From the NCBI GenBank assembly GCA_965217625.1, contig OZ244557.1:1469827-1533826 (forward strand): a stretch of DNA of 64,000 nt, read 5' to 3'. The DNA is from Dehalococcoidia bacterium. Lineage in GTDB: Bacteria; Chloroflexota; Dehalococcoidia; Bin125. Below are positions 16,269 through 48,722 of the stretch, piece after piece. The notes beneath the pieces are model-generated. The model did not search any database. It had not been told where the DNA came from and saw nothing but the letters and a program-made list of their open reading frames with translations. The position numbers and the translations under genes were made by a program. Position 1 is the first letter of the stretch. Every line of letters begins with the position of its first letter.

Positions 16269-17828
16269 TCAGGGTCGCCAGGAGGGGCCGGCCGTGGGGC
16301 CGAGTTGCGTCTTGAGGACGGGCTGGGCGAGCTCGGCGAACTCGCAGAGCAGCGAGCGGGTGTCGCGGGGGTCGATGAGGTCGAGCCCGCTCGCCTCGGC
16401 CGTCTTGAAGGGCGACGAGTACTTGCGGAAGTCGTTCTCCAGCTCGAGCCGCTTGGCCTCGGGGTCGGGGGCCGACTCGATCACCCGGCGGAAGGCGGCC
16501 GAGGTGCCGCCCTCGATGTGCATCGAGCCCCAGTGCCCCGACGGCCAGGCGTAGCGCCGGAAGAGATGCGGGCCGGGGCGGTACTGCAAGCTGCCCGCCA
16601 GCCCGTACGACTGCCGGCAGATGAACGAGACCCAGGGCATGCGGCTGTGGATGATCTGGTACATGAAACGTGCGCCCGCGCGCTCGATGCCCTGCTTCTC
16701 GGACTCGGGGCCGACGAGGAAGCCGGGGTCGTCCATGAGCACGACCATGGGCAAGTGGAAGGTGTCGCAGAGCTGGACGAGGCGCGTGCACTTCTCGGCC
16801 GCCGCGACGTCCATCGAGCCGCCGCGCCGGTTGGGGTTGTTCATCATCACGCCCACTGGGTAGCCGTCGGCGCGGGCCAGGCCGATGATCCGGGAGGGGC
16901 CGTAGGCGGGGGCGATCTCGAAGAACGAGCCCTCGTCGAAGACGCCCTCGATGATGGGGCGCGGGTTGTAGGGCTTGCGGATGTCGCGCGGGATCAGCGA
17001 CAGCAGGCGCTCGTCGCGGCGGTTTGGGTCGTCGCCGGTTTCGACGCGGGGCGCCATCTCGTAGACGTTGTCGGGCAGGTAGCTGAGGAAGCGTTTGGCC
17101 TGCTCGATCGCGGCCGGCTCGTCGGGGGCGACGTTGTCGACCACGCCGCTGACGCGGGTGTGCACGCGCCAGCCGCCCAGGTCCTCCTTGTCGATGTCGA
17201 GGCCCAGGGCCGCCTTGACCACCGGCGGCCCGCCGGGGAACACCTGCCCCAGGCCCTTCGCCACGACGCTGAAATGGCTCAGCGGCGGGATGGGGGCCGC
17301 CCCGCCGGCGGCGGGGCCCAGCACGACCGTGACGACCGGCGCCACGTTGACGACCTTGCACATCCACTCGAACTGGGCGCCGTCGGGGATGTAGGTGCGG
17401 CCCAGCTCCGTGAACTCGTTCACGCTGCCCCCGGCGGCGTCCATGAGGTGCACCGTGGGCATGAGCATGGCCGACGCGTCGGGCTGGCCGTGGCCGATAT
17501 CGACCGCGCCGTCGCTGGTCCGGCCGGATGCGCCGCGGATGGTGAAGTCGGAGCCGCTGACGTAGACAGGTCGCCCGTTGACCTTGGCGACGCCGCGGAC
17601 GCGGGGGGCCGGGGTGAAGCCGGCGAGGGCGCCGTCGTCGTCGTAGGTGGCGTGACCCTGCAGCTTGCCCATCTCGCGCAAGGTGCCGGGGTCGACCAGC
17701 AGCGCCAGGCGCTCGCGGACGGTGAGCTTGCCGCGGGCGCGCTGCCGGGCGATGCCCACGGGCCCGCCCATGCCCTCGGCCAGCGTGTGGCGGCGCTGCA
17801 ACTCGTCGATCTCCGGCTGCCAGGTCAT
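16269..17828 (-). CDS. Acyl-CoA carboxylase carboxyltransferase (beta) subunit, PccB/AccD-like (CT2)
   Basis: Paralog of CT1. MTWQPEIDELQRRHTLAEGMGGPVGIARQRARGKLTVRERLALL... and PGFLVGPESEKQGIERAGARF. ATG at 17828. Confidence 0.85.
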   Translation of the reverse strand: MTWQPEIDELQRRHTLAEGMGGPVGIARQRARGKLTVRERLALLVDPGTLREMGKLQGHATYDDDGALAGFTPAPRVRGVAKVNGRPVYVSGSDFTIRGASGRTSDGAVDIGHGQPDASAMLMPTVHLMDAAGGSVNEFTELGRTYIPDGAQFEWMCKVVNVAPVVTVVLGPAAGGAAPIPPLSHFSVVAKGLGQVFPGGPPVVKAALGLDIDKEDLGGWRVHTRVSGVVDNVAPDEPAAIEQAKRFLSYLPDNVYEMAPRVETGDDPNRRDERLLSLIPRDIRKPYNPRPIIEGVFDEGSFFEIAPAYGPSRIIGLARADGYPVGVMMNNPNRRGGSMDVAAAEKCTRLVQLCDTFHLPMVVLMDDPGFLVGPESEKQGIERAGARFMYQIIHSRMPWVSFICRQSYGLAGSLQYRPGPHLFRRYAWPSGHWGSMHIEGGTSAAFRRVIESAPDPEAKRLELENDFRKYSSPFKTAEASGLDLIDPRDTRSLLCEFAELAQPVLKTQLGPTAGPSWRP

Positions 17829-18214
17829 GGGTGCTCCTCGTGCGATGCCGGGCGCAGCCCCGTCGGGGGGTGCGGGGGCTCGCGCACCCCACGAGCCTAA
17901 CGTGCCTAACGAGTTACGGTGCGCTGCGCCCGGCGCGCGGGCGGGGCCGCCACGTCGTCCTCGGCGGCGACGAGGCGCGTCCGGCCGGGGCATCGCTCAG
18001 CGGCGGCGGCGCCCGTCTGCTAAAGTGCTAGCGGAGCCGGGGCGTCACCCCCGACGATCCGGCAGGCCGGCGCCGACCACGACCGCGGCCTGCCCTCGCC
18101 ACCTGCGAACAGGCGGCCCCACCAGCGCCCCCGACCATACCGGCCGGGGGCGCTTCGCGTTCAGGCTCCGCAGCGGTGCCGACCCCTTGACGGCTGGAAG
18201 CTGCGCGGCGGCGG

Positions 18215-19594: not shown

Positions 19595-19908
19595 TGTCAG
19601 GCTCCGCACGGGCTCACTCCCGTCTCCACGTCGCGCCGCCGGGCCGCGGGGGACGTCCGATCACTCCGTCTCATAGTCCCGCGCCGGGCGTTTGTCCAGC
19701 CGAGTCTCAGTCCGGGGCGGATCAGCCGGGTGCGTGCTGGCGCGCGCCGGGGAGGATCGGACAGCGGCCGGTTACGCCCGGGCCGACGTGACCAAGCTGG
19801 TAGCCTCGCCGCCAGGGCGTCGCGTCGCTGCGGCATGTACCGGCGCCGTATGTCGCCACGGCCAGCGGCGCTAAGGGCTGGGCGGCGGGGCGTAGCGGGG
19901 AGTGGTCC

Positions 19909-22887
19909 GTGGGTAGACGGGCCGTTGTGTTCGTCTTGGTTTTGCTGCTGGGCGGCCTGGCGGCGGCGATCATCCTCGCGTCCGGGGACACGCCAGGGGA
20001 ACCAGCGGAGGCTCCCGGGCCCTCGGCGGCCGCCGCGGATGCGGAGGCGTCGCCCGAGGCCGAGCCCGCCGCCGCGGAGGCGGAGCCGCCGCCCGAGGCT
20101 GAGCCCGCCGACGCCGAACCGGAGCCGCCGCCCGAGGCCGAGCCGACCGCCGCAGAGCCGGAGCCGCCGCCCGAGCCCACCGCCGCCGAGGCCGAGCCGC
20201 CACCCGAGCCCGAGCCCGCCGCCGAGGCCGAGCCGACCGCCGCGGAGCCGGAGATACCGCCCGAGTCCGAGCCGGCCGCCGCGGAGGCCGAGGCACCGCC
20301 CGAGCCCGAGCCGGCCGCCGCAGAGTCGGAGACGCCGCCGGAGCCCGAGCCGGCCGCCGCGGAACCGGAGGCGCCGCCCGCGCCCGAGCCGGCCGCCGCG
20401 GAGCCGGAGACGCCGCCCGCGCCCGAGCCGGCCGCCGCGGAACCGGAACTGCCGCCGCGATGCGACAGCGGGACGGCGGTTCCCAGCCCCGAGGACAACC
20501 CCGGACTCGTCGCCGACTGCGCCATCCTGCTCGAAGCGGAAGCGCAGCTCGCCGGCCGCGCCACGCTCAACTGGGACGCCGGCACGCCAATCAGCGAGTG
20601 GGACGGTGTCACGGTGGGCGGGACGCCGGAGCGCGTGCAGCGGCTGCGCTTGGCTTCGCGTGAGCTCACCGGCAGCCTGCCGCCAACACTCGGCGGTTTA
20701 TCGGGTCTGCTGGTCCTGGAACTCCGCGGCAACCAGTTAAGCGGCCCGATACCGGCGGAACTGGGAACACTGGCTGAACTCCAAGAACTGAGCCTGAGCC
20801 GCAATCAGTTCAACGGTGCGATTCCGGCGGAGGTTGGCTCCCTGCGCTCCCTGGAGGCCCTGCGCCTGGAAGACAACCAGCTCAGCGGTGCGATTCCGGC
20901 GGAGTTGGGATCCCTTGCGAACCTTCGGCGACTGCTTCTCGAAAACAACCAATTGAGCGGCCCGATCCCGAGCGAGTTGGGGCGTCTGGAAGGCCTGCGG
21001 CTACTGCACCTGTACAACAACCAGTTGAGCGGCCCCATCCCGAGCGAACTGGGGCGCCTGCGAGGCCTGCAGGTACTGCACCTGCACAACAACCAGTTGA
21101 GCGGGCCGATCCCGAGCGAATTGGGGTGGGTGCGCAGCCTGCTGTCCCTGCGACTGCAGGGCAACCAACTGAGCGGAGCAATCCCGCCGATGCTTGGGGT
21201 GCTGCGGCGCCTTCAGCGCTTGGATCTGCGCGATAACCAGTTGAGCGGCGACGTCCCCCAGTGGCTGCAACGCCTGCCAGCCCTCGTCGAGGTGTATCTG
21301 GCCGGCAACGCCGGTCTGACGGGCTGCGTCGTGACGCTGCCGCTACGGGTGACGCGTAGCGATCTCCGCGATCTCGGCCTGCCAACGTGCGAGTCGGCCC
21401 CACCCACGACGACGGCAGCAGCATCGTCGCCCTCTACCTCCCGGCCGGCGTTGCCGCCCGGTCCCTCGCCGTCACTCCCGCCGGGCCCCCCGGGAACGCC
21501 GCCGATCACGCTTGCTGTCTGGATATCCGACGAGGAGTCGGCGATCATCCAGGAAGTGGTCGCCGACGTGTTCGCGTACTTCACGCCGCGGCTGGGGCCG
21601 CCGCCCGATGACTACCGGTTCGTTGTCAGATCAATCTCGTTCCCCTGCTTGACGAGCTTATACAACGGCGGCGTGAACGAGATCTACGTGCCCTGCCGGC
21701 AACTGGAAGCGCTACTCCGATTCGACCTGCCGCGCAGCTATGCAGAACAAATACTGCATCGGAACGTCTACCGTAACCCTTGCGACTACCCCGACCCGGC
21801 GTGGCTGGTGCTCGGCGCTCCGTACTACGTGGCACGGCGGTATGCCGACGCACGTGGGCTACTCGCCTACGAGGAGTCCCGGAAACCCATAGTCGCCCTG
21901 GCGCGCGCGACGCGACTCGCACTCGATGATCCCGATCTGCACAAACCGGGTACGTGTGGGAACTACCCACCGCACTACGAGTTCTACATCGAGATGGTGA
22001 GAATGCTGGGAGTGCTCGCCGTCGAGCGGTTGGTCGAGCGCAGCGGGGACGAGGCGCTCGGCGAGTACTTCACGCTCAGCAAGACGACGGCGTGGCGGGA
22101 CGCCTTCGCGGCCGCCTTCGGCCTGTCCGTCGAGGACTTCTACCGGGAGTTCGCGGAATACCGGCGCTCGGTAACGCCGGCGGGGCTGGCGGAGGCGGAC
22201 GCCACGCCCGAGTTGCACGTGGTCATGAACGTGGCGGATCCGAGCGTGGAGGGCGCGCAGGAGGTGTGGGCGGAGTGGGAGGCCGTGCGGCGCTTCTACC
22301 TGGACCGCTTCGGCCTGGAGGTCGACGCGGCCATCGCCTACGCGGACCTCACGCCCACATTGTACCGCGACCTGCTCGGGTGGTGGGACGTGACGTCACA
22401 GTGCGCCATCGTGCTGCGCCCCGGCGTCGCGATGTATCTGAAGAAGGACTGCGGGGGGCGCGACGTGAATCTCGCGCACGAGTACTTCCACCTGCTACAG
22501 CGCGAACTGGGTGATGGCGGTGGGCACCATTGGATGATCGAGGGCTCCGCCATCCACATGCAGGAACAGTTCGTGCTCGACCAGTGGGGCTTCTCGGCCG
22601 AGGAGCGGAGGCCGAACAATGTGCGCCTCGCCGCCTCATACATACAATCGGTCAGCCGTGGGGTACCCGACGCCAGCTTTGCCGAAACCGCTCTAGAGTA
22701 CGGTCCGCACTACGTCGGATTCCTGGCCGTGGAGTGGCTGGTGGAGCGCGCGGGAGAGGAAGCGATCCTTGAGTACTTCCAAGGGCGATCGTTCTCCAAT
22801 CTGTTCGGCTTGACCGAGGAGGAGTTCTACGCGGAATTCGGCCCCTATCTGCGCGCGCTCCTGGAGGAGCACGCCTCGGGTCGGTGA
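19909..22887 (+). CDS. Membrane-anchored multidomain protein: PEAE-rich linker, about 11 leucine-rich repeats, Pro-rich spacer, two tandem ~220-aa domains with an HExxH motif in the second
   Basis: N-terminal TM anchor (GRRAVVFVLVLLLGGLAAAIIL). (A/E/P)-rich repeats. 24-residue LRRs (LSGPIPSELGRLxxLxxLxLxNNQ). Internally duplicated C-terminal domain (LAVERLVERSGDEALGEYF vs LAVEWLVERAGEEAILEYF). HEYFH present only in copy 2. GGGGAG SD before the GTG start. Confidence 0.7.
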   Translation: MGRRAVVFVLVLLLGGLAAAIILASGDTPGEPAEAPGPSAAAADAEASPEAEPAAAEAEPPPEAEPADAEPEPPPEAEPTAAEPEPPPEPTAAEAEPPPEPEPAAEAEPTAAEPEIPPESEPAAAEAEAPPEPEPAAAESETPPEPEPAAAEPEAPPAPEPAAAEPETPPAPEPAAAEPELPPRCDSGTAVPSPEDNPGLVADCAILLEAEAQLAGRATLNWDAGTPISEWDGVTVGGTPERVQRLRLASRELTGSLPPTLGGLSGLLVLELRGNQLSGPIPAELGTLAELQELSLSRNQFNGAIPAEVGSLRSLEALRLEDNQLSGAIPAELGSLANLRRLLLENNQLSGPIPSELGRLEGLRLLHLYNNQLSGPIPSELGRLRGLQVLHLHNNQLSGPIPSELGWVRSLLSLRLQGNQLSGAIPPMLGVLRRLQRLDLRDNQLSGDVPQWLQRLPALVEVYLAGNAGLTGCVVTLPLRVTRSDLRDLGLPTCESAPPTTTAAASSPSTSRPALPPGPSPSLPPGPPGTPPITLAVWISDEESAIIQEVVADVFAYFTPRLGPPPDDYRFVVRSISFPCLTSLYNGGVNEIYVPCRQLEALLRFDLPRSYAEQILHRNVYRNPCDYPDPAWLVLGAPYYVARRYADARGLLAYEESRKPIVALARATRLALDDPDLHKPGTCGNYPPHYEFYIEMVRMLGVLAVERLVERSGDEALGEYFTLSKTTAWRDAFAAAFGLSVEDFYREFAEYRRSVTPAGLAEADATPELHVVMNVADPSVEGAQEVWAEWEAVRRFYLDRFGLEVDAAIAYADLTPTLYRDLLGWWDVTSQCAIVLRPGVAMYLKKDCGGRDVNLAHEYFHLLQRELGDGGGHHWMIEGSAIHMQEQFVLDQWGFSAEERRPNNVRLAASYIQSVSRGVPDASFAETALEYGPHYVGFLAVEWLVERAGEEAILEYFQGRSFSNLFGLTEEEFYAEFGPYLRALLEEHASGR

Positions 22888-23431: not shown

Positions 23432-24814
23432 CTACTTCAGGCGCGTGAGGATGCGGCCCTGGTGGTCGGCGTGCGGCGGCGGATACGTGCGCATCTGCGC
23501 GGTCCAGCGCAGGACGCGGCCGACGTGGTCGCGGGTCTCCGTGGGCAGCATCACGTCGTCGATGACGCCCTCGGCAGCGGCGGCGAAGGGGCCGCGGCCA
23601 TCGTCGGCGGTCGCGGCATGGGTCGTATAGGCGGGGACGGGGCCGGTCGCGACGTCGGCCTGCGCCCACGCTCCGACGTAGTGCCGCCCCAGCTCCTCGC
23701 CGCCCAGGAGCCAGTCGCCGAAGACGTAGCCGCGCGAGACGATCAGCGACAGCAGAGGCGCGTCCGCCTCGCGCAAGTGGTTGCCGGCCGTGGCGATATC
23801 GCGCAGCGTCTCGGGGTCGGCGAGGGCGGCCGGGTCGTAGGCCGCGCCGTGCTGAATCAGCAGGATGGGGATGCGGAACCGGCGCCGCAGCCGCGCGATG
23901 TGCAGCAGCGGCGTGACGTGCGCGCGCGTCAGGCCCAGCCCCGGCCCCGCCGCCGCGTAGGCGGTCAGGATCCCGTCGATGACGCCGAGCCCGGTCGCGA
24001 ACGTGCCGTCGGAGGCGGCGTGGATGGGGAAGTGGCTGCCCTCGTCGAGGAGGCCGGCGAGCAGGTCCGCGACGCTCAGGGTGGCGGGATCGACGTCGTC
24101 GGCGAAGCGACCTCTCGGCGGGGCGGCGTCGCGGCGCAGATCATCCTCGCCGTCGTGGGGCAGGAGGGCGAGGCAGCGGCGCGCGGCCGCGATCGCGGCC
24201 GCATCGTCGGCGACGGCGATGTCGGCGATGGCGCGGGTCGCGTCGGAGGCGGCACCGCCGGCGATCGTGAGATCCGCGGCGGCCAGCAGGCCGGTGTCGG
24301 CCCCCTCAAGACCGCCCAGGACGACCGCGATCAGCGGTGCCTGGCGATCATCGAGGCGCAACTCCGGGACCACGGACGCGCGGTCGGACGCGCCGCGGCG
24401 GAGCAGGCCTTCGGCCGCGTCGGGGAACTGCGCGGGCAGGGCGGCGTCGGCGAGGTAGGCGATGGCGACGCCGCCGGCGAGGCTCTGCTGGACGATGCGC
24501 ACGCGCTTGTTCGTGCCCACTTGGCCGTCGCTGCGGGCCATGATCACGGGGTCGTCGGCGATGACGCCGACGAGGCGGCCGCCGACATCGGCGAAGCCCG
24601 CGACCACGCCGTCGCCGGGGGTGGCGTCCTCGATCGCCGGGAGCTGGCTGCGGGTCAGCGCGCCGATCTCGAACAGGCTGCCCGGGTCGATCAGCTGCTC
24701 GACGCGGCGGCGCGGCGTGAGCGCGCCCGGGGCGGGGGTGCGCGCCGCCTCGTAGGCGGCGAGGTCGCGCTTCTCGGCGTGCGCGCGGGCGATGCGGTCG
24801 GCGGTACCTGCCAT
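23432..24814 (-). CDS. Divergent carboxyltransferase-domain protein (acyl-CoA carboxylase beta-like, possibly non-catalytic) (CT4)
   Basis: 460 aa with CT-like N-terminal (RRRVEQLIDPGSLFEIGAL) and C-terminal halves, but degenerate catalytic regions. Directly downstream of CT3 on the same strand. Confidence 0.6.
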   Translation of the reverse strand: MAGTADRIARAHAEKRDLAAYEAARTPAPGALTPRRRVEQLIDPGSLFEIGALTRSQLPAIEDATPGDGVVAGFADVGGRLVGVIADDPVIMARSDGQVGTNKRVRIVQQSLAGGVAIAYLADAALPAQFPDAAEGLLRRGASDRASVVPELRLDDRQAPLIAVVLGGLEGADTGLLAAADLTIAGGAASDATRAIADIAVADDAAAIAAARRCLALLPHDGEDDLRRDAAPPRGRFADDVDPATLSVADLLAGLLDEGSHFPIHAASDGTFATGLGVIDGILTAYAAAGPGLGLTRAHVTPLLHIARLRRRFRIPILLIQHGAAYDPAALADPETLRDIATAGNHLREADAPLLSLIVSRGYVFGDWLLGGEELGRHYVGAWAQADVATGPVPAYTTHAATADDGRGPFAAAAEGVIDDVMLPTETRDHVGRVLRWTAQMRTYPPPHADHQGRILTRLK

Positions 24815-24834: not shown

Positions 24835-26355
24835 CTAGCGATAGGGCCGCATGCGGCGGCGGCAGATCTCGAGCACGCGGGCCAGCACGGGCCGGGTGTC
24901 GGCGGGGTCGATGACGTCGTCGAGGTAGCCGAGCCGGGCGCCGATCCAGGGCTCGCCCCGCTCGCGGAACGTTTCGGCGCGCTCCTCCAGGTAGGCCTGC
25001 GGATCGGGCGCGGCCTCCATCTCGCGCCGGAACGCGACGCGCACGCCGGGCTCAGGCCCCATGAACATGATCTGCGAGGTCGGCCAGGCGATGGTGTGCC
25101 ACTCGTAGTCGGAGGCGCTCATGCCGGGATAGGCGTAGCCGTAGCCCTTGCGCAGCGAGATCGCGATCTTCGGCACGGGCACGCGGATGCGGCGAATCGC
25201 CATGTCGTAGATCACCGTGAGCAGCCGGTGGTGCTCCTGCTCGACGTTGGGGATCACGCCGGGCACGTCGACGAAGCTGAGCAGGGGCAGGCGGAAAGCG
25301 TCGCAGGCGCGCAGCATGCGGTCGATCTTGTTGATCGCGGGCACGTCGAGCGAGCCGGCCTTGCGGGCAGGCTGATTGGCGATGATCGCGACGGCGTGTC
25401 CGTCGAGCCGGGCCAGGCCGGCGACCAGGTTCGAGGCGTAGTCGGGCGTCCACTCCATGAAGCTGTCGCGGTCGACGACGAGGCGGATGATCTTGCGCAC
25501 GTCGTAGGCGCGGTTGAGGCGGTCGGGGATGATGTCGCGGAGGATGGGCTCGCGGCGATCGACGGGGTCCCCGCAGCGCACGACGGGCGGCGGCTCCCAG
25601 GCGTTGCCGGGCACATAAGAGAAGGTGCGCCGCAGCAGCGCGATGGCGGCGGCATCGTCGGGGACGACGGCGTCGATCTGGCCCGTCACGCGCCCCTGGA
25701 TCTCGGCGCCGCCGATGTCGAAGGGGGAGACGAACTCGCCGCTGGCCTCCTGCACGACCGGCGGGCTGGCGATGGAGAGGTTGGAGTTCTGCGTCATGAT
25801 GCAGAAGTCGGCGTCGGCGGCGTCCCAGGGGGCGTAGTAGTTGCCCATCACGGCGGCGAAGTGGGCCCAGCGGTTGGGGAAGGCGAGGCGCTCACCGAGC
25901 TCACCGCCGGGCACGCCGGCGAAGCGCGAGGAGAGGACGTCGGTGATGCGGCCGCCGCCGCCCTGGATCAGCGCAAACAGCGGCAGGCCCGCTTGCTCGC
26001 AGACCCGGTGGATGCGGGTCTTCTTGCGCATGTTGCCGCCGCCCAGGGAGCCGCCCTTCACCGTCGCGTCCGAGGCGTAGTAGCCGACGGGGCGGCCGTC
26101 GATCTCGCCGAAGCCGGTCAGCAGGCCGTTGCCCAGCGTGCGCGCCTCCTCCCCCGGGACGCCGGACGTGAGGAAGGAGCCCAGCGGCAACTCGCTGCCG
26201 GGGTCGAGCAGCAGGTCGATCCGTTCCCGCGCGGTGAGCAGCCCGCGCGCGTGCTGTCGCGCGACGCGCTGCGGCCCGCCGAGGCCGCGGGCGCTCTCGC
26301 GCAGCGCGCGCAGATACGCGACGGCGTCGGCGGGGGCGTCGGTGGGTGCAGTCAT
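24835..26355 (-). CDS. Acyl-CoA carboxylase carboxyltransferase (beta) subunit (CT3)
   Basis: GGPQRVARQHARGLLTARERIDLLLDPGS, KGGSLGGGNMRKKTRI, VPGVIPNVEQEHHRL. Carboxyl_trans family. ATG at 26355. Confidence 0.85.
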   Translation of the reverse strand: MTAPTDAPADAVAYLRALRESARGLGGPQRVARQHARGLLTARERIDLLLDPGSELPLGSFLTSGVPGEEARTLGNGLLTGFGEIDGRPVGYYASDATVKGGSLGGGNMRKKTRIHRVCEQAGLPLFALIQGGGGRITDVLSSRFAGVPGGELGERLAFPNRWAHFAAVMGNYYAPWDAADADFCIMTQNSNLSIASPPVVQEASGEFVSPFDIGGAEIQGRVTGQIDAVVPDDAAAIALLRRTFSYVPGNAWEPPPVVRCGDPVDRREPILRDIIPDRLNRAYDVRKIIRLVVDRDSFMEWTPDYASNLVAGLARLDGHAVAIIANQPARKAGSLDVPAINKIDRMLRACDAFRLPLLSFVDVPGVIPNVEQEHHRLLTVIYDMAIRRIRVPVPKIAISLRKGYGYAYPGMSASDYEWHTIAWPTSQIMFMGPEPGVRVAFRREMEAAPDPQAYLEERAETFRERGEPWIGARLGYLDDVIDPADTRPVLARVLEICRRRMRPYR

Positions 26356-26435
26356 CGGACCTCCCGGCTGGCGAAGGGTCGCCGTGGCGCAGGATAGCCG
26401 CAACCGGCGTCGTGGGGGGGCGCAACCTCAACTGG

Positions 26436-26666
26436 CTATGGGTCGAAGCCAATCTCGCTGAGGAAGTCGGCGAGGCTCCATGCCGCGAGGCCGAGACGCT
26501 GACAGGCTGTCGTCATTGCGATCTTGATCGGCAGCCGGTCGATACGATCTTCGGTCACGACGCGGACCAACCGACCGGACTGCTGGAACTCCATGCCCTG
26601 CGCCGATATATCGAAGACGGCGATCCGATCGAGATCGCGGCGGAGAATGTCCCCGCCGGCGCTCAT
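26436..26666 (-). CDS. Small hypothetical protein (76 aa), translationally coupled to the upstream HTH/ImmA gene
   Basis: ATGA start/stop overlap at 26663-26666. High GC3 consistent with coding. No family recognised. Confidence 0.45.
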   Translation of the reverse strand: MSAGGDILRRDLDRIAVFDISAQGMEFQQSGRLVRVVTEDRIDRLPIKIAMTTACQRLGLAAWSLADFLSEIGFDP

Positions 26667-27835
26667 GCCGAAGTGCCGATCTCGTCGGCAAGTTCCACGA
26701 TCTCGGCACCGTCGAGACGCAAGTATCGGCGCGCGTCGAGCTCATTGAGCCGGTGATCAGACACCGCGCGCAGGACCGTCATCGCCGCACGGGGTCCGAC
26801 CTCGTTCAGCCTGCGCTTCGGCGCTCGCCGAGCACCCCCGCGGCCGAAACCCTTGTCAAAGTCGGCAGTCGGAGCGGCTTCCTCGACATCTGCATACAGC
26901 GTGTCGTCCGCCAGTCCAGATCGGATCAACGCGACTGCCGTCGCTCGCAGGCTGACGTTGAATTCCGAGGCAAGCTCCTGGACGAGTGCGAAGTCGGGCT
27001 CAACAGCCACTACAGCACTCCGGACCGCCGCACGTAGCGCGTCCCGCGGGAGCACGGCTGCGCTCGCGACGGCTTCGCACCAGCGCTCAACGTCGTCAGC
27101 ACCGGGCCCGTGGCCCACTTCCTCAAGGCACGAGGTCCCTGTTCCTGCGCCGAGATGCGCGAGTTCATGCAGCAGCGTGAATATCCGCGCCTGGGGGTTT
27201 TCGCGCGTATTCACGGCGACCAAGGGAGCGAAATCATCGGGGAGCGAGAACCCTCGCAGGCCGTCGCTGCCAAGCTGCAATTGCATAACGACGACGCCGC
27301 GGCGCTCCAACGCGTCGCGCCACGCATTGAACGCTTCCCGGGCCGACGACCAGTCCCGTTGCTCCTGCAGCGTCAGCCCGAGCCATGTCCTCAGCCGAGC
27401 GCCAGCGACGTCGGCCGGGGACGTGATGGGCACGCGGGGCAACTCCACGGATTCCCCGTGCTCGTCCCGCTCAAGCAGGCTCAGAAGGCGCTGCATGCGT
27501 CGGGCCCGGCGCACAGGCAGCAACTCCGCTGCGGTCAACCGTCTCGTGGTCCTCCCGACGGCGCTACGCAGCCGGGGTGGCACTCCGCCGGTCTTCGGAG
27601 GCTCCGGGAGGAAGAAGATCGACTTTGGGCGGTGTAGTCTCTCCGCGAGTTTGGTGAACTGCCCCTGTGTCGGTCCATCGTCGCCCGTGATCCACGCCTG
27701 GACGGTCGCTGCGTCGAGCTTGAGGCCCGCTGCAAGATCCTCGGCCGAATAGCCGGACTCTTCGATTGCCCATTTGAGAACCTCGGAGGTCACGGGCGGT
27801 CGTGCAGGCGGCATTATCCGGCTCGCTTCACGCAT
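26663..27835 (-). CDS. XRE-family HTH fused to ImmA/IrrE-type (COG2856/DUF955) metallopeptidase-like domain; candidate ScfR/RamB/PrpR-like regulator
   Basis: N-terminus VTSEVLKWAIEESGYSAEDLAAGLKLDAATVQAWITGDDGPTQGQFTKLAERLHRPKSIFFLPEPP is the HTH typical of the COG2856 family. HExxH in RIFTLLHELAHLGAG. Only the C-terminal ~390 aa of the 890-aa track ORF is real. Confidence 0.75.
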   Translation of the reverse strand: MREASRIMPPARPPVTSEVLKWAIEESGYSAEDLAAGLKLDAATVQAWITGDDGPTQGQFTKLAERLHRPKSIFFLPEPPKTGGVPPRLRSAVGRTTRRLTAAELLPVRRARRMQRLLSLLERDEHGESVELPRVPITSPADVAGARLRTWLGLTLQEQRDWSSAREAFNAWRDALERRGVVVMQLQLGSDGLRGFSLPDDFAPLVAVNTRENPQARIFTLLHELAHLGAGTGTSCLEEVGHGPGADDVERWCEAVASAAVLPRDALRAAVRSAVVAVEPDFALVQELASEFNVSLRATAVALIRSGLADDTLYADVEEAAPTADFDKGFGRGGARRAPKRRLNEVGPRAAMTVLRAVSDHRLNELDARRYLRLDGAEIVELADEIGTSA

Positions 27836-27879
27836 CCAGTACGTTGGCGGAATGATACGGGACGGGGGAGGCGCAGGCC

Positions 27880-29380: not shown

Positions 29381-30226
29381 TCACGACTCGCACCCCAGCC
29401 CATCCCCGTCGACGTCGAAGCGGTGCGGGTCGGCGCCGACGACGCGGAACCGGCGCAGCGAGATGTCGCCGCAGTCGAGGTCGGGCGGGGGCGGCGGGAT
29501 GCACACGCCGGGGTACGACGGATCGCAGTGCGAGGCGTCGGGGATGGTCGCGGAGCGGCGGCCGTCCGACTGCACCCAGAGGGCCTGCCCGCGCTCGACC
29601 ATATGGAGCGTGCGGAGCCCAGGCGGCAGGCCAGCGGCGAAGGACATGAAGCGGCCGTCGGCGTAGGCGATGATCCGATCGGCGCCCAGCGTCGCCGCGA
29701 CCTCGGAGGCCGTCGCGCCGGGCCCGGTCCAGCCAATCGTGCTCCACCCGTCCGCGACGGCGACCGTGCGCGCGCCGGTGAACACGGGTCGCGTCCAGGA
29801 CGAGGGCCCAGACAGTTGCAGCCAGAGCGCGTCCCCCGCCGCGACCTCGGGCAGCGTGTTGAGGGACGAGGCTGACGTCACGCGCCAGGTATCGAACTCG
29901 CCGGCCTCGACGTTCCAGCGGAACACCGCAAGCAGACCGGGGATCGCTCCCAGCACCGCCGCCGGCGCGCCCGCCTCGGTCGCGACCACGAAGCTCCAGG
30001 GGGCCTGCAGCGGGATGGTTTGGGGGGTGACGGCGGCATCGGTCGCGGCGGACGGGGTCGTCGGCGGGGCGGGTTGCTCGGTCGCCTGGATGTCGCGCGA
30101 CTCGGCCCCGGCGACCAGCATCCCAGCGACGAGCAACACGACGGCAAGCAGAGCAGCCGCCAAGCCCGCGGGGCGCTCCTCATGGCCGGTTCCGCCGACG
30201 CATCGGCGCAGCGTAGCAGCGGGCAT
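29381..30226 (-). CDS. Secreted/membrane-anchored protein with a C-terminal Excalibur (extracellular Ca-binding) domain
   Basis: C-terminal CDPSYPGVCIPPPPPDLDCGDISLRRFRVVGADPHRFDVDGDGLGCES contains the DxDxDGxxCE Excalibur motif. Hydrophobic anchor LAAALLAVVLLVAGMLVAG. Start uncertain. Confidence 0.6.
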   Translation of the reverse strand: MPAATLRRCVGGTGHEERPAGLAAALLAVVLLVAGMLVAGAESRDIQATEQPAPPTTPSAATDAAVTPQTIPLQAPWSFVVATEAGAPAAVLGAIPGLLAVFRWNVEAGEFDTWRVTSASSLNTLPEVAAGDALWLQLSGPSSWTRPVFTGARTVAVADGWSTIGWTGPGATASEVAATLGADRIIAYADGRFMSFAAGLPPGLRTLHMVERGQALWVQSDGRRSATIPDASHCDPSYPGVCIPPPPPDLDCGDISLRRFRVVGADPHRFDVDGDGLGCES

Positions 30227-30374
30227 CGCGCCGGAACGGCGTCGCGGGCCGCCGACCGTGACGGGGGCGCGGAACCTGGCGCAGGTCGACAGCGGCAGCG
30301 CGATCCGATACACAAGCGCGAGGCCGTCCCGGCGCGGCGGCCCGGCAGACCCTGCACCGCTGAGGAGGCCCGCA

Positions 30375-31118
30375 ATGCGGCTGGCGCGAATCGAGCACAA
30401 CGGCAACCCGGTCTACGCGATCGTCGAGGGCGACGAACTGGCGCTGATCGAGGGCGACCCGTTCGGCGCCCACGGGACGACGGGCGAGCGCGTGCCGCTG
30501 GCCGGCGCGACGCTGCTCTGCCCGGCGACGCCCACGAAGATCGTGGCGATGGCCGTCAACTACCGCAGCCACGGGGATCCGGTGACGGTGCCGCAGCCCT
30601 TCCTCAAGGCCCCGTCGGCGCTGATTGGGCCGGAGCAGCCGATCGTGCTGCCGCCCGACGCGGGCCGCGTGGACGAGGAGGGCGAGGTGGTCGCGGTGAT
30701 CGGGCGGCGGGCGTCGCGGATCACGGTCGACGAGGTCGACGCGCACGTCTTCGGCTACACCTGCGGCAACGACGTCTCGGCGCGCGAGTGGCAGGGGGCC
30801 GACGTGCAATGGTGGCGCGCCAAGTCGTCCGACACGTTCGCGGCCGTCGGGCCCTGGATCGAGACGGACCTCGACCCGGAGGCGATCGGGTTCCGCGCGC
30901 GCGTGAACGGGGAGACGGTGCAGGACGCGCACACCAGCGAGCTCGTCTTCGCGGTGCGCGAGTGCGTGGCGTTCATCTCGCAGGCGATGACGCTGGAGCC
31001 CGGGGATCTGGTCTACACGGGCACGCCGGGCACGACGGCGCGGCTGTCGGCCGGGGACGTCGTCGAGATCGAGGCGGACGGGATCGGCGTGCTGCGGAAC
31101 CCGGTCGTCGGGGGCTGA
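30375..31118 (+). CDS. Fumarylacetoacetate hydrolase (FAH) family protein
   Basis: MRLARIEHNGNPVYAIVEGDE...KIVAMAVNYRSH...GTPGT...DVVEIEADGIGVLRNPV. TGAGGAGG SD 7 nt upstream of the ATG. Confidence 0.85.
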   Translation: MRLARIEHNGNPVYAIVEGDELALIEGDPFGAHGTTGERVPLAGATLLCPATPTKIVAMAVNYRSHGDPVTVPQPFLKAPSALIGPEQPIVLPPDAGRVDEEGEVVAVIGRRASRITVDEVDAHVFGYTCGNDVSAREWQGADVQWWRAKSSDTFAAVGPWIETDLDPEAIGFRARVNGETVQDAHTSELVFAVRECVAFISQAMTLEPGDLVYTGTPGTTARLSAGDVVEIEADGIGVLRNPVVGG

Positions 31119-31124
31119 CGGGGG

Positions 31125-33608
31125 TCAGGGGCGGGAGCGGCGCACCAGCGCAGTAGCGGCCAGGCCGAGGGTCAGGGCGGCAGCGACGGCGAGGGGGAGG
31201 ACAGCGCGCGAGGGCCGGTCGAGGCCGCCGCTGCCGGTATTGGGGAGGGCGGTGGGGCCGGGGACGGCCTCATCGTCCGCGGGAGCGGTGTCGCGATCGT
31301 CCGCGGGGGCGGCATCGCTATCGTCCGCGGCGGCGGCATCGTCCTCATCCGCGGCGCCGGCATCGTCCTCATCCGCGGCGCCGGCATCGTCCTCATCCGC
31401 AGCGGCGGTGTCGCCATCATCCGCGGCGACGCCGACGTCATCATCCGCGGCGGCGGCATCGCTATCGTCCTCGGCGCCGGCGATGTCATCGTCCTCGGCG
31501 GCGTCACCATCGCCGCGGTCCTCCTCCGCCGGAGCGTCGCTGTCAGCGTCGTCGCCGGCGCCGTCTCCGGTGTCCGGCGAGCCGAAGGCGAGGGCGACTT
31601 CGGTCCAGGCCCCGCCGACGACATCGTACGGCGCGCTGTGCTCCGACCCCTCAATGCTGAACGCGACGCGGGCGGCCTCCCCCTCGCTGACATCGATGAC
31701 CCAGTCGCCGCCGGCGACCACCGCGCTGTGGAGCTCTTCTCCGTCTTGGTCCCAGGCGATGATGACCGTGCCGTCGGCGACGAGTTCACCGTCGATGGTG
31801 GGGCCGGAGCCGTCCGCGGCGGAGCCGTAGAACACGTGTGACGAGGCGACCGGGACCTCGATGGCGCGCCGCATCCAGACGACGCTGCCCAGGGTCAGAG
31901 AGGAGTCGTCAAGCGTGCTCACGAGCTCGGGGACGCCAACCCTGTGGCTCAGGAAACGCTGCGCGGCGACATCGAACATCCACACGCCGGCGACCGGGAA
32001 CTGCTGCGCGGCGATCAGGGCCGCCAGGTCGGATGTGCACGCGAGCCCGTAGGTCCATCCGCCCGGCGGCGGAACCGGCAGAGCGGTTGGCTCGTCCTCG
32101 GCGATCGACGCCTCCGCGTCCGACACGCCGCCCGGCGCGTCGGTGCGCCGCATGATCACGACGCTCCCGGGCCGCAGCGAGGAGCCGTCGAGGGTGTTCA
32201 AGGAATCGGGCGCGCCAACGGTGTGGCCCCGGAACTCCTGCGCGTCGATGTCAAACAACCAGACGCTGGCGACCGGGAACCGCTGCGCGTCCATCAGGGC
32301 CGCGAGGTCCGATGTGTCGGAGGCGCCGTAGGTCCATCCACCTGGTGGAGGGACCGGCAGGACGCTCGACCCGCACGCCTCGGCGGGCGCCGGCTCCTCG
32401 GACCCTGTCGAGTCTGGCGTCCCGCCGGCGCCGTCGCCCACGATGCCGCCGGGCGCACCACCCTGGGAGCCGCCCGGTGGGTCAGTCCCCGCGGTCTCCA
32501 GTGGGGGCGTCTGGGTGTCCTGCGGCGGCGGGTTCTGGGTGTCCTGCGGTGGCGGGTTCTGGGTGTCCTGCGGTGGGGGGTTCTGCGTGTCCTCCGGCGG
32601 GGGGTCCTGCGTGTCCTCCAGCGGGGGGTCCTGCGTGTCCTCCGGCGGGGGGTCCTGCTCCGTGTCCTCCGGCGGCGGGTCCTGCGTGTCCTCTGGCGGC
32701 GGGTCCTGCGTGTCCTCCAGCGGGGGGTCCTGCGTGTCCTCCGGCGGCGGGTTCTGCGTGTTCTGCGGCGGGGGGTTCTGGGTGTTCTGCGGCGGAGGGC
32801 TCACGTCGCAGTTGGCCTGGTCCACGCGCAGGACCGCGTCATCGAAGTCCTCGTCGCCGCCGCCGTACCAGTCCTCGAAGGAGACGGTGGAGCCCGAGGT
32901 CCGTGCGTGTGTGAGTCCGTCGGGGTTGCGCGTCCCAGACCCCGCCCAGAACACGTCTCCGGTGTCGTGCACGCGGATCCCGAGTATGAAGTCCCCCGCT
33001 GAAAGGTCGTCGAGCACCTTCGTGCTGCCGGCATCGTGGTTCGTGATGCCGAGTGAGGTCGACGGGCCCGTTTCGGAGCGCTTGAAGAGGAACGTGCTCA
33101 CATACAGGGCCTCCGAGGGCTGCACGGTGAAGGTGATCTTGGTGCAGGCGCCCGTCAGCGTGATGGCGGGACCGATCGCTGGGCCGTTGGCGCCCATCCG
33201 GGTCGGTTCCTGTCCGAGCGCGACCTCGCGGGCCCGCCCCGGCCCGCAGCCGGCGTCGTTGCACGCCTGCAGCCGCACTCGCCACAGACCGCGGCCGGGC
33301 ATGGCGAGCGTGGCCTCGGTCTCGGTGACGGTCACCGCGTCGCCCGGCTCGAAGTCCCCGCCGGGGCGCCGCCAGTTGAGGGAATAGGAGGTCGCTCCGG
33401 GAACGTCATCCCATGACACGCCCACCTCCAGCGCGGCCACCTGGACGCCGACCGCCAATCCGGCGGGCTTGGCTGGCGCCCTCTCCTCGGTGCGCACGTC
33501 GCGGGCGGCGGCGGCGGATCCGGGCAGCGCCAGCAAGACACTCAACAGGACCAGGACGCCCGCGAGGAACTGGATACGGAAGGTCGGACTCTTGTCGCGC
33601 AGCCCCAC
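31125..33608 (-). CDS. LPXTG-anchored surface protein A: FN3-like and DUF4114-like domains, PPPQDTQN octapeptide repeats, duplicated ~75-aa domain, acidic D/A tail, LPNTG sorting signal
   Basis: Signal peptide FRIQFLAGVLVLLSVLLALPGSAAA. FEDWYGGGDEDFDDAVLRV matches the DUF4114 motif. C-terminal LPNTGSGG plus a hydrophobic stretch plus RRSRP. GGGAG SD before the GTG at 33608 (the track ORF starts at 33647). Confidence 0.8.
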   Translation of the reverse strand: MGLRDKSPTFRIQFLAGVLVLLSVLLALPGSAAAARDVRTEERAPAKPAGLAVGVQVAALEVGVSWDDVPGATSYSLNWRRPGGDFEPGDAVTVTETEATLAMPGRGLWRVRLQACNDAGCGPGRAREVALGQEPTRMGANGPAIGPAITLTGACTKITFTVQPSEALYVSTFLFKRSETGPSTSLGITNHDAGSTKVLDDLSAGDFILGIRVHDTGDVFWAGSGTRNPDGLTHARTSGSTVSFEDWYGGGDEDFDDAVLRVDQANCDVSPPPQNTQNPPPQNTQNPPPEDTQDPPLEDTQDPPPEDTQDPPPEDTEQDPPPEDTQDPPLEDTQDPPPEDTQNPPPQDTQNPPPQDTQNPPPQDTQTPPLETAGTDPPGGSQGGAPGGIVGDGAGGTPDSTGSEEPAPAEACGSSVLPVPPPGGWTYGASDTSDLAALMDAQRFPVASVWLFDIDAQEFRGHTVGAPDSLNTLDGSSLRPGSVVIMRRTDAPGGVSDAEASIAEDEPTALPVPPPGGWTYGLACTSDLAALIAAQQFPVAGVWMFDVAAQRFLSHRVGVPELVSTLDDSSLTLGSVVWMRRAIEVPVASSHVFYGSAADGSGPTIDGELVADGTVIIAWDQDGEELHSAVVAGGDWVIDVSEGEAARVAFSIEGSEHSAPYDVVGGAWTEVALAFGSPDTGDGAGDDADSDAPAEEDRGDGDAAEDDDIAGAEDDSDAAAADDDVGVAADDGDTAAADEDDAGAADEDDAGAADEDDAAAADDSDAAPADDRDTAPADDEAVPGPTALPNTGSGGLDRPSRAVLPLAVAAALTLGLAATALVRRSRP
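32500..32810 (-). repeat. Coding tandem repeat, 24-bp unit x ~13 (encodes PPP(Q/E)DTQ(N/D))
   Basis: Seen directly: ggggggttctgcgtgtcctccggc-type units repeated head-to-tail inside the LPXTG-A gene. Confidence 0.8.
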
Positions 33609-33697
33609 GGTGCTCCCGTGCGCGGGGCGCGGCACGCAGCCGCGCACTCCACCGCCCGCTCAGAGAGTCACGTCACCACCAATTGCGCCAGGGCCGC

Positions 33698-44749: not shown

Positions 44750-46195
44750 TTACCGGGGCATCTCGCGCTGATGCAGATCGATCAGCTCGCCGAGGCGGCT
44801 AACGCCCTGCCTCGGCACTCTCCCCCGTTCGTCACTATGCATTATGTCCATCAGCCTCCCAATTCTTCGAGGGTCTGCTGTCTTCGTTCTTTGCGAAATG
44901 CACTGGGGCTGTGTCAAATCCGCACCGTCTCTGAGAAGTTGCAGTTGCGCCAACGCTGGTGCCTGCTCATCCAGGTCTTGTTGGTCCGCAATGTACAAAT
45001 GGCTCTCGATCACATCCAGCACCCGCTCTGTGTCTCTAGTCTGACGCCCGCTGGGATCCGCTGCGTCGATATAATTCATGACATCACTGCCACGACACTT
45101 GCCTGAGAGAAATCGGCGATATAGTCCGGTATTGCCAAGCTTCAGTGCCACAAGCGGCGCAAGCAGCACAGGGTACATAAATCGCCGGACTTCCATGCTC
45201 TTGGCGAGCAACACTACCAACCGCACACAGTAGTCTATATCCCTGAGGGATAGTCCCACGCGGTCACAGATCACCGAGAAGGCTGTGGCGAACACATCAA
45301 GTTCTTCGGTGTGCAGTCTTGTGTTGCCTTCCTTGCCGAGCTCCTCAAAGAACTCCGCCAGTCCGTACCTGTCGATCATGTGCTTGCAGAATGGCTCTGA
45401 GCTCACTTCTGACAGCGTGAGCTCCATATCGAAGAAGCGCCGGAGGTAGACATCCGCGTCGATCCCTCCATAGACCGACTGGAGGGCCGAGCAGAGTTCA
45501 GTCCGGTTCACGCCAAACACGAACACCATGTGGGGTACGTCGAAGATGTGCTTGACCCTCTCCAACAGCTCGATGGCGAAGGTCGGGCGACATCTGTCCA
45601 GCTCATCAATGATGAAGACCAGAGGGTGCTCGGTCTTCCGATGCACTTCCGATGCCAGGTCCCGCAAGGACTCCCTCAGCTCATCCTTGCTGGCTCGCTG
45701 CGCAGCATAGGCACCGAGAAGATTCCCTTGATCCGGTCCCCTCGGCTCTACCTGGAACGTGATCCCGACTTGTTTGCTTAGGACCCCCAGCACGTTCTGG
45801 CGGATCAGTGGTACGGCAGCCTTGGCAATCCGGCCAGCCATGTCCTTGAGTTCCGATCCGCTGAAGTACGCCGAGAGCTGGCCGAGGATCGCTAGAAGTG
45901 GGTCGTCGCAGAAGTCGTCTTCCCAGGCATTGAAATAGATGGCTCTGAAGCCATCGCTCTGCAACTCCGCCTGCCAGCGCTGGAGGAAGAATGTCTTACC
46001 TGTCCCCCAATGGCCATGGACGCTGAGCACGAACGGGGATTCCTGATCGCGGACGACGTTGGTCAACCGTTCGGCGACCTCCGCCCGATTGAGGACATCA
46101 TCGTGCCATGGTTTCCCTGCCGAAACATCCGGCTCCAGCACCTTCAAGCTCAATGGGTCACGAGTCTTCGCTGCGGGCGTACCATCTTCGCTCAT
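44750..46195 (-). CDS. KAP-family P-loop NTPase
   Basis: Walker A HGHWGTGKTFFL. Walker B FIIDELDRC. Size and architecture typical of KAP NTPases. Locally depressed GC (about 55-60% versus about 70%). Confidence 0.8.
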   Translation of the reverse strand: MSEDGTPAAKTRDPLSLKVLEPDVSAGKPWHDDVLNRAEVAERLTNVVRDQESPFVLSVHGHWGTGKTFFLQRWQAELQSDGFRAIYFNAWEDDFCDDPLLAILGQLSAYFSGSELKDMAGRIAKAAVPLIRQNVLGVLSKQVGITFQVEPRGPDQGNLLGAYAAQRASKDELRESLRDLASEVHRKTEHPLVFIIDELDRCRPTFAIELLERVKHIFDVPHMVFVFGVNRTELCSALQSVYGGIDADVYLRRFFDMELTLSEVSSEPFCKHMIDRYGLAEFFEELGKEGNTRLHTEELDVFATAFSVICDRVGLSLRDIDYCVRLVVLLAKSMEVRRFMYPVLLAPLVALKLGNTGLYRRFLSGKCRGSDVMNYIDAADPSGRQTRDTERVLDVIESHLYIADQQDLDEQAPALAQLQLLRDGADLTQPQCISQRTKTADPRRIGRLMDIMHSDERGRVPRQGVSRLGELIDLHQREMPR

Positions 46196-48646: not shown

Positions 48647-48722
48647 TGGTGGGCCCTCAGGGGTTCGAACCCTGGACCTTCGGATTAAAAGTCCGCTGCT
48701 CTACCAGCTGAGCTAAGGGCCC
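48647..48722 (-). tRNA. tRNA-Lys (anticodon UUU), CCA encoded
   Basis: GGGCCCUUAGCUCAGCUGGUAGAGCAGCGGACUUUUAAUCCGAAGGUCCAGGGUUCGAACCCCUGAGGGCCCACCA. Clean cloverleaf, 7-bp acceptor stem, TpsiC GGUUCGAAC, anticodon loop CUUUUAA. Confidence 0.9.

Follow-up and report, generated by a model that had tools for sequence, protein, structure and literature searches.

Metalloproteases that carry an inactive duplicate of their own catalytic domain are known. In anthrax lethal factor (family M34) and in the M16 pitrilysins, the catalytic domain is duplicated, and the zinc-less copy is kept for binding or enclosing the substrate. The M9 collagenases, among them ColG, ColH, ColT and the enzymes of Vibrio and Grimontia, are extracellular and modular, and their peptidase domain cooperates with a partner domain that is not catalytic. 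In bacteria, leucine-rich repeat (LRR) recognition modules are joined to catalytic modules in the IpaH/SspH E3 ligases and in XopL and XopAC. Here we describe a gene encoding a 992-amino-acid protein in a 64,000-nucleotide stretch of a Dehalococcoidia genome (contig OZ244557.1), which we refer to as the window. From its sequence and predicted structure, we consider it likely that this protein is an extracytoplasmic, most likely membrane-tethered, modular zinc endopeptidase that is targeted by its LRRs and retains a pseudo-catalytic duplicate. It adds novelty inside a known clan and is not a new kind of system.

The evidence for a peptidase comes from the C-terminal region. An earlier note on this DNA had described two tandem domains of about 220 residues, only the second of which retains a HEYFH motif, and both points held. 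The copies are homologous (BLASTP E value of 4e-14, 32% identity over 136 amino acids) and measure about 230 residues, and the HEYFH at residues 857 to 861 of copy 2 is the only HExxH in the whole protein. The spacing from the motif to E878, the predicted third zinc ligand, is 16 residues (His to Glu). An AlphaFold2 model of residues 528 to 992, made with 20 sequences, had a predicted local distance difference test score (pLDDT) of 81.7 and a predicted template modeling score (pTM) of 0.82; for copy 2 alone, the values were 87.4 and 0.87. The two-domain pTM suggests that the copies are held in a fixed mutual orientation as a rigid pair. The model of copy 2 has four beta-strands and, after them, eight helices; HEYFH lies inside helix 84 to 100 and E878 inside the following helix, 107 to 126. 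This predicted order, in which the strands come before the HEYFH helix and E878 is on the next helix, is the gluzincin arrangement.

A gluzincin fold, which the earlier note had raised for this region, was also what the Foldseek searches against PDB returned. All top 38 PDB matches to copy 2 were gluzincins, led by the M9 collagenase ColG at a query-normalized TM score of 0.56 to 0.59. LTA4H, ERAP1, PepN and the Deinococcus M1 enzyme followed at about 0.46 to 0.56, and an M61 aminopeptidase and LasB (M4) were also matched. The two-domain model retrieved the same families. In the model, three structural features of clan MA(E) are present, with HExxH on an alpha-helix, the Glu ligand on the following helix and a thermolysin-like fold (query TM score of 0.47 to 0.59 to M9, M1 and M4 structures). 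At the level of sequence, the C-terminal region, searched as a single sequence, had no match in PDB; the best PDB sequence match of the family profile was an M1 metalloprotease, aligned exactly over HExxH...WLxEG (E value of 0.09).

The size of the family depended on the search method. A word-indexed homolog search gave just 10 to 16 relatives, and the family seemed tiny. When a profile built from 15 domain copies was used in an exhaustive hidden Markov model (HMM) search, at least 4,572 cluster representatives (50% identity) were recovered at an E value of ≤1e-3, 301 of them at ≤1e-30. Most representatives have two to five tandem copies of the domain. Members in named genomes belong chiefly to the Dehalococcoidia, the Tepidiformaceae and other Chloroflexota, including sponge-derived bins, with weaker relatives in freshwater Actinomycetota, and there are often several paralogs per genome. 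No further copy of the domain is present elsewhere in the window.

The zinc site was followed through 290 fully aligned domain copies from 167 proteins. The four residues H-E-H-E are intact in 110 of these copies, and the remainder carry nearly any residues at all four positions. When single copies are aligned, HExxH and the Glu of the downstream W-x-x-E-G are retained or lost jointly; the equivalent of E878 is present in 100% of intact copies and missing from degenerate ones. Of the forms that the motif takes, HEYFH dominates (67 copies). The conservation of HEYFH in homologs, on which the earlier note had let its proposal depend, was borne out in that HExxH and the downstream Glu are found in every ortholog. 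Judged from these alignments, the co-variation is that of a catalytic zinc site and not of a chance HExxH. The GxMEN exopeptidase motif is absent from the window protein and from all 166 relatives. Because no family member has it, endopeptidase action is more likely, and the enzyme is probably an endopeptidase rather than an exopeptidase.

Several observations weigh against this interpretation. The Foldseek probabilities were about 1, and the E values were modest, at 5e-3 to 5e-2. Pfam assigns only LRR families to the window protein, and the isolated copies have no match even at an E value of ≤10. The NCBIfam model of the MXAN_6640 putative metalloprotease (NF045524) reached 20.8 bits against a cut-off of 140, over 38 residues around HExxH. 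At alignment column 408, where the family usually has a Tyr, the window clade has a His, in the pair His934-Tyr935. Our literature searches found no paper describing this domain family. Finally, an intact copy is missing altogether from 23 'dd' and 6 'ddd' relatives, and the fold can evidently serve a non-catalytic role. Taken further, this would make the protein a non-catalytic surface adhesin or binding protein in which both gluzincin-like domains are mere scaffolds and HExxH has no catalytic role; copy 1, which is conserved without a zinc site, and the LRRs, as a binding module, would both suit such a protein. We find this improbable. H-E-H-E is invariant in the orthologs (the window protein, P0002, P0048, L002, P0016 and P0017) despite only 69 to 76% identity in copy 2, six more positions next to the site (A856, Y859, F860, Q864, A881 and the Tyr of column 408) are conserved in intact copies only, and some of the all-degenerate proteins may be pieces of longer genes.

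The curated models place the domain near, and outside, known families. Among 59 relatives scanned against Pfam, 24 matched Peptidase_MA_2 (PF13485; best E value of 6.3e-7) and 10 matched M9, with a few each matching M61, M1, BSP and DUF5700; all of these families are in clan MA. The PF13485 and M9 scores seen lie below the cut-offs. For PF13485 the cut-off is 32.4 bits, and the relatives with scores shown had 19 to 27.5 bits (the 59-member scan shows no bit scores). For Peptidase_M9 (PF01752) it is 26 bits, and there the window protein had no match and the best relative, P0005, had 25.7 bits. The earlier note had thought the protein not obviously assignable to a known family, and indeed no Pfam or NCBIfam peptidase model applies at its cut-off. 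The domain is a divergent, uncurated branch of clan MA(E), nearest to PF13485 and M9 and by the cut-offs in neither. It is very improbable that the protein truly belongs to MEROPS M9 (collagenase) or M1 (aminopeptidase). The top structural matches are M9 and M1 enzymes, HEYFHxLQ resembles the M9 motif, and the Plasmodium M1 aminopeptidase PfA-M1 has the very same HEYFH (PMC3244404). However, the window protein matches neither PF01752 nor PF01433, and it lacks GxMEN, the M1 N-terminal and ERAP-type C-terminal domains, and, by Pfam, the activator, PKD and CBD domains of M9.

Two further features of the domain were observed. The most conserved segment is formed by the C-terminal 40 or so residues of each copy (about 961 to 985 in the window protein), with the pattern W..AF...FG.....FY..F..YR in intact and degenerate copies; it gave weak Pfam matches to BTRD1, a polyglycine-hydrolase structural repeat, in 11 of the 59 members and to the villin headpiece in 7 of the 59. 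Just before the FG...FY...F motif, P0048, L002, P0016, P0017 and P0020 have a 13-residue APHPRGVTDWDTV-like segment, which is missing from copy 2 of the window protein and P0002 at residues ~957 to 960 (nucleotides ~22777 to 22788).

The arrangement of the copies also follows a pattern. Among family members with several copies, one intact copy accompanied by degenerate ones is the most frequent layout, in agreement with the active-plus-degenerate peptidase pair that the earlier note had seen in this protein. Among two-copy proteins, the order was intact-degenerate in 36, degenerate-intact in 18, two degenerate copies in 23 and two intact copies in 8; a single intact copy was present in 12 of the 20 proteins with three or four copies. 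The intact copy may occupy any position. The ratio of nonsynonymous to synonymous substitution (dN/dS) between the window protein and two orthologs is 0.39 to 0.44 for copy 1 and 0.33 to 0.44 for copy 2. With values of 0.21 to 0.44, every module, copy 1 included, is under purifying selection. Copy 1 is therefore maintained by selection, most likely as a partner without catalytic function that helps to shape the surface on which substrate binds, or extends it. Precedents for such a dead partner domain exist in anthrax lethal factor, with its degenerate domain I, and in M16 enzymes, with their inactive halves.

At the other end of the protein, the N-terminal anchor that the earlier note had proposed was recovered. 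The sole hydrophobic segment is at residues 5 to 24, the only one above 1.6 on the Kyte-Doolittle scale (19-residue window; peak of 3.04). There is no lipobox Cys at the N terminus. The anchor is followed by a spacer of proline, glutamate and alanine (P/E/A) that was confirmed at 157 amino acids, close to the 160 or so first estimated. These three residues make up 89% of it, its net charge is −45, and it has a period of 13 residues (39 bp in the DNA; autocorrelation of 0.65 at lag 13) and indel differences between orthologs. A possible signal-peptidase site, A-S-G|D, lies behind the hydrophobic core. If it were cleaved, the protein could be a released nutritional protease that degrades environmental protein and feeds peptide uptake, and two SBP_bac_5 peptide-binding proteins and an ammonium transporter are encoded within the window. 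We regard this alternative as rather unlikely. P0048 has M-S-R|D in place of the site, the 20-residue core with a long acidic Pro-rich stalk would resemble a tether more, and the peptide-transport genes are >3.8 kb away on the opposite strand. Because the site is not conserved in P0048 and the long acidic Pro-rich stalk follows, the N-terminal sequence is more likely an uncleaved membrane anchor than a cleaved signal peptide. The five local Cys pairs in the protein, together with the Sec-type N terminus, would place it outside the cytoplasm.

The LRR module had been credited with about 11 repeats of 24 residues. The count is nine full repeats and a partial capping repeat. Pfam LRR families match residues ~248 to 470 (best E value of 3e-27), with LRR_1, LRR_8 and LRR_4 exceeding their cut-offs, and the nine in-register 24-residue units carry an NQLSG(P/A)IP core that agrees with the consensus of the plant-specific type, for which we used LxxLxLxxNxL(S/T)GxIPxxLGxLxx with a 24-residue period. 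The claim of a near-perfect 72-bp tandem array was wrong. In-register identity between the 72-bp units is 58% on average and 85% at its peak (units 5 to 7), the longest exact word shared between units is 19 nucleotides, and the matches reported by Tandem Repeats Finder are at 73 to 88%. On the N-terminal side, residues 184 to 263 have no Pfam match even at an E value of ≤10, LRRNT_2 (PF08263) included, and, by its sequence, the cap, with its Cys185/Cys204 pair, represents a bacterial variant and not the plant LRRNT_2. On the C-terminal side, P0144 also carries a 'TGC...LPxC' cap. The proline-rich hinge noted earlier is present, with 14 Pro among the 40 residues from 494 to 533.

Modules of this kind are widespread. 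More than 5,000 prokaryotic plant-type LRR ectodomains match at an E value of ≤1e-10, fused to fn3, PPC, cadherin-like, Big and, once, subtilase domains; the best matches outside the orthologs are 51 to 59% identical. Ectodomains of plant LRR receptor kinases also match, at an E value of about 1e-86 and 34 to 40% identity, which might recall a receptor signaling across the membrane as those kinases do. The topology effectively refutes such a receptor. Only the four residues MGRR precede the membrane segment, leaving a 4-residue cytoplasmic stub, and there is no second membrane segment and no cytoplasmic domain. From the earlier suggestion of a surface receptor or protease, the protease reading is supported by fold and conservation, and the signaling receptor falls. 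Two ideas about the LRR cassette were dropped. Foreign origin was unconvincing, since its third-position guanine-plus-cytosine (GC) fraction of 0.78 is merely slightly below that of the remainder of the gene (0.82 to 0.90). Diversification of the ligand face was not retained: substitutions are more frequent on the concave face than at the remaining positions taken together (25% versus 9%; P value of 2e-4), but the difference is not significant when other non-scaffold positions serve as the control (25% versus 17%; P value of 0.17).

Comparison with related contigs revealed variation on two scales. The number of full LRRs in orthologs of the same architecture is 8 (P0048), 9 (window) or 11 (L002), and the differences amount to entire in-register units; the repeat-number change that had been anticipated does occur. 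In contig L001, whose flanks are 98 to 100% identical to the window in 300-bp bins, the N-terminal cassette is replaced by an unrelated segment with a different anchor and a beta-rich 'GW' module. Beyond the cassette, the two C-terminal copies (window positions 21500 to 22800) are only 76 to 86% identical between L001 and the window, with a dN/dS of about 0.44, and identity returns to 94 to 100% about 300 bp after the stop codon. The locus is a divergence island that takes in the whole gene, beyond the N-terminal cassette, in a near-clonal background. These comparisons show that the recognition end of such enzymes is remodeled by recombination, beyond point mutation. The 'GW' module is the usual partner of the domain in the family (63 of 166 proteins). 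Among the 166 representatives, LRR fusions were found only in P0048 and the architecturally different P0144. Because LRR fusions are rare and the 'GW' module is the usual partner, the LRR version is a derived, rare variant.

A further contig, L045 (ENA ERZ25072670), yielded a 359-amino-acid protein, P0001, that is 100% identical to the window protein. This contig has 2x coverage, and in it the gene is split into three calls and the ammonium transporter into two. The splits are probably frameshift errors, and P0001 is probably an artifact fragment and no real variant. The module that replaces the LRR cassette in L001 also occurs in the window itself, in a 341-amino-acid protein at 29381 to 30406 (−) without a Pfam match. 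Its N-terminal segment is hydrophobic, its C terminus is Cys-rich, and one of its domains is a paralog of the N-terminal module of P0002 (E value of 8e-66). On a 17-kb contig, L046 (ENA ERZ25067264), there is a cluster of LRR proteins (LRR only; LRR with cadherin-like; cadherin-like with PPC); LRR proteins and members of the peptidase-like family, such as the fragment P0020, may cluster at other loci too.

We considered two broader interpretations. The first is an envelope-maintenance protease, in which the LRRs dock on a surface component of the cell itself (an S-layer or wall protein) and envelope proteins are what the enzyme would process or turn over. The concentration of the family in Chloroflexota, often with several paralogs per genome, the presence of the usual partner module in the surface protein at 29381 to 30406 and a nearby sortase-type LPNTG protein would fit. 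Housekeeping sits poorly, however, with cassette replacement and with 76 to 86% identity inside flanks of 98 to 100%, and no operon joins the gene to genes for envelope biogenesis; we give this explanation little credence. The second, which we offer tentatively as a possibility short of an even chance, is that the family represents new MEROPS-level surface 'capture-and-cut' proteases. Their recognition module (LRR or 'GW') would be swapped as a cassette and the LRR number tuned (8, 9 or 11), making this a fast-evolving, specificity-switching locus on which phages, hosts or competitors would exert diversifying or balancing selection.

For the window protein, the LRR-targeted zinc endopeptidase that we favor would work as follows. 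The short N-terminal hydrophobic helix would tether the protein to the cytoplasmic membrane, and the 157-residue acidic P/E/A stalk would extend the remainder off the membrane and through the envelope. There, the disulfide-capped nine-repeat LRR solenoid may capture a protein or peptide ligand. The Pro-rich hinge would connect the solenoid to a rigid pair of homologous thermolysin-like domains, in which copy 2 is predicted to coordinate zinc via H857, H861 and E878, with E858 as the general base. H934/Y935 lie at the position of the Tyr of most intact copies, and that Tyr could stabilize the transition state. Copy 1, having lost the zinc site while remaining under selection, could shape or extend the substrate-binding surface. 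In this division of labor, the LRRs would decide which target is captured, and copy 2 would cleave it. We infer zinc binding, catalysis, endo action, membrane tethering and the division of labor from the features described above, whose coordinates are collected in Table 1.

Table 1. Positions in the window of the gene, its modules and adjoining elements
Feature	Position	Strand	Basis or remark
Complete coding sequence, 992 amino acids and stop codon	19909..22887	+	GTG start; third-position GC of 0.83 in frame
GGGGAG Shine-Dalgarno-like site, 6 nucleotides 5' of the GTG start	19897..19902	+	Read from the sequence
Exchangeable N-terminal cassette (5' leader, anchor, P/E/A spacer, LRR, hinge)	19829..21498	+	In the near-identical contig L001, an unrelated 788 bp takes its place
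Signal anchor or signal peptide, residues 1-26 (MGRR, then a 20-residue hydrophobic core)	19909..19986	+	Hydropathy
Acidic P/E/A spacer, residues 27-183, ~12 repeats of 13 residues	19987..20457	+	Composition, periodicity
LRR N-terminal cap, residues 184-243, Cys185/Cys204	20458..20637	+	90% identical to L002; dN/dS of 0.21
Plant-type LRR solenoid, nine full 24-residue repeats (244-459) and partial capping repeat (460-475)	20638..21333	+	
LRR C-terminal cap (Cys473/Cys494) and Pro/Ser/Thr-rich hinge to residue 533	21334..21507	+	Composition
Copy 1, degenerate gluzincin-like domain, residues 534-767	21508..22209	+	R/S/E/L in place of the H/E/H/E zinc-site residues
Copy 2, intact gluzincin-like domain, residues 768-992	22210..22884	+	Zinc-site residues kept
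HEYFH (H857, E858, H861), predicted zinc ligands and general base	22477..22491	+	On a predicted helix
E878 in W-M-I-E-G, predicted third zinc ligand	22540..22542	+	On the next helix
138-amino-acid hydrophobic protein, 92 bp past the stop codon	22979..23395	+	Adjoins the gene also in L001 and L045

The ORF is a genuine gene. Its third-position GC is the value expected for one in 70% GC DNA, and the orthologs P0048 and L002 begin at the equivalent start position. A divergently transcribed ammonium transporter lies on one side, and the 138-amino-acid hydrophobic protein lies on the other, on the same strand. The latter has no match in Pfam or PADLOC, and its association with the gene is uncertain. 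We saw no sign of an operon with a defined pathway around the gene, and a scan of the locus for sigma-70 promoters and terminators gave nothing exceeding shuffle expectation. Membership in a defense system was rejected, with no PADLOC family matched at an E value of ≤1e-3. The closest named genome is a Dehalococcoidia metagenome-assembled genome (MAG; CBDBQC010000003.1) that is syntenic with the window; its upstream carboxyltransferase gene is 91 to 97% identical and its downstream genes are 84 to 96% identical to those of the window.

Three paralogs with carboxyltransferase domains surround the gene on both sides, at 16269 to 17993 (−), 23432 to 24814 (−) and 24835 to 26403 (−). The middle one has a weak partial Pfam match (E value of 6.5e-18) and may be a degenerate subunit. 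Next comes a 1.47-kb segment, 26410 to 27877, with an HTH_3 and Peptidase_M78 (ImmA/IrrE-like) gene at 26663 to 27790 (−) that matches PADLOC RmrA (E value of 5e-16). This segment is absent from the syntenic MAG L002, holds other genes in L001 and lies beside a DUF4411 gene in L045; it looks like a small mobile or defense insertion. An 840-amino-acid surface protein at 31125 to 33647 (−) has a DUF4114 match, PPEDTQD-type repeats, a duplicated module of ~85 amino acids and a long Asp/Ala-rich region. It ends in LPNTG, a membrane segment and RRSRP, a sortase-type sorting signal that implies a sortase-using, single-membrane cell envelope. Farther along, two stretches with a GC of 0.61 to 0.63, against about 0.71 elsewhere, lie on either side of a tRNA-Lys gene (48647 to 48722, −), at 44750 to 46195 (−) and 48898 to 50667 (−). 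A KAP-family NTPase (PADLOC PDC-S20, E value of 5e-101) is encoded in one of them and a GmrSD type IV restriction enzyme in the other; the two stretches together are likely a defense island.

The wider interest of the protein lies in its family, a large group of gluzincin-like proteins that no tested curated model reaches at its cut-off. The organizing rule of this family is one intact catalytic domain with one to four dead duplicates, and dead duplicates kept beside an active parent offer a natural series for pseudoenzyme studies. Chloroflexota are abundant and rarely cultured, and their extracellular enzymes are poorly known. Should the LRR-directed version prove active, it would offer a simple setting for work on targeted extracellular proteolysis.

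Among described proteins, those of Peptidase_MA_2, a family of clan MA(E) in an unassigned MEROPS family and the Pfam family matched by the largest number of relatives, share the HExxH helix, the Glu in 'EGxAxY' on the next helix and a helical C-terminal subdomain. They differ from the window family in that the latter has tandem copies, mostly degenerate sites and a C-terminal FGxxxxxFYxxFxxYR motif. The M9 collagenases are the best structural match and have a similar motif context, HEY-x-H-x-LQ. In the window protein, by comparison, the partner of the peptidase domain is a degenerate duplicate of the catalytic domain itself, and its His-to-Glu spacing sets it apart. The M1 aminopeptidases (LTA4H, ERAP1, PepN, PfA-M1 and the Deinococcus enzyme) bear the third ligand in WLxEG and align at a TM score of about 0.5, but they have HExxH-x18-E in place of a 16-residue spacing, together with the GxMEN motif and flanking domains that the window protein lacks. 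Lethal factor and the M16 enzymes are alike in principle, in pairing an active domain with a degenerate duplicate, and lethal factor (4pkw) was among the weak two-domain structural matches, at rank 36. They belong to other metalloprotease families and folds, whereas the window family reaches five tandem copies with the intact copy anywhere among them. The IpaH/SspH ligases, XopL and XopAC resemble the window protein in combining LRR recognition with catalysis, and NCBIfam models of XopAE, XopAC and XopL match its LRR region far under their cut-offs. Those proteins, however, are cytoplasmic effectors of type III secretion whose LRR subtypes and enzymatic domains are different, whereas the window protein has a Sec-type N terminus, disulfide caps and the plant-type 24-residue repeat.

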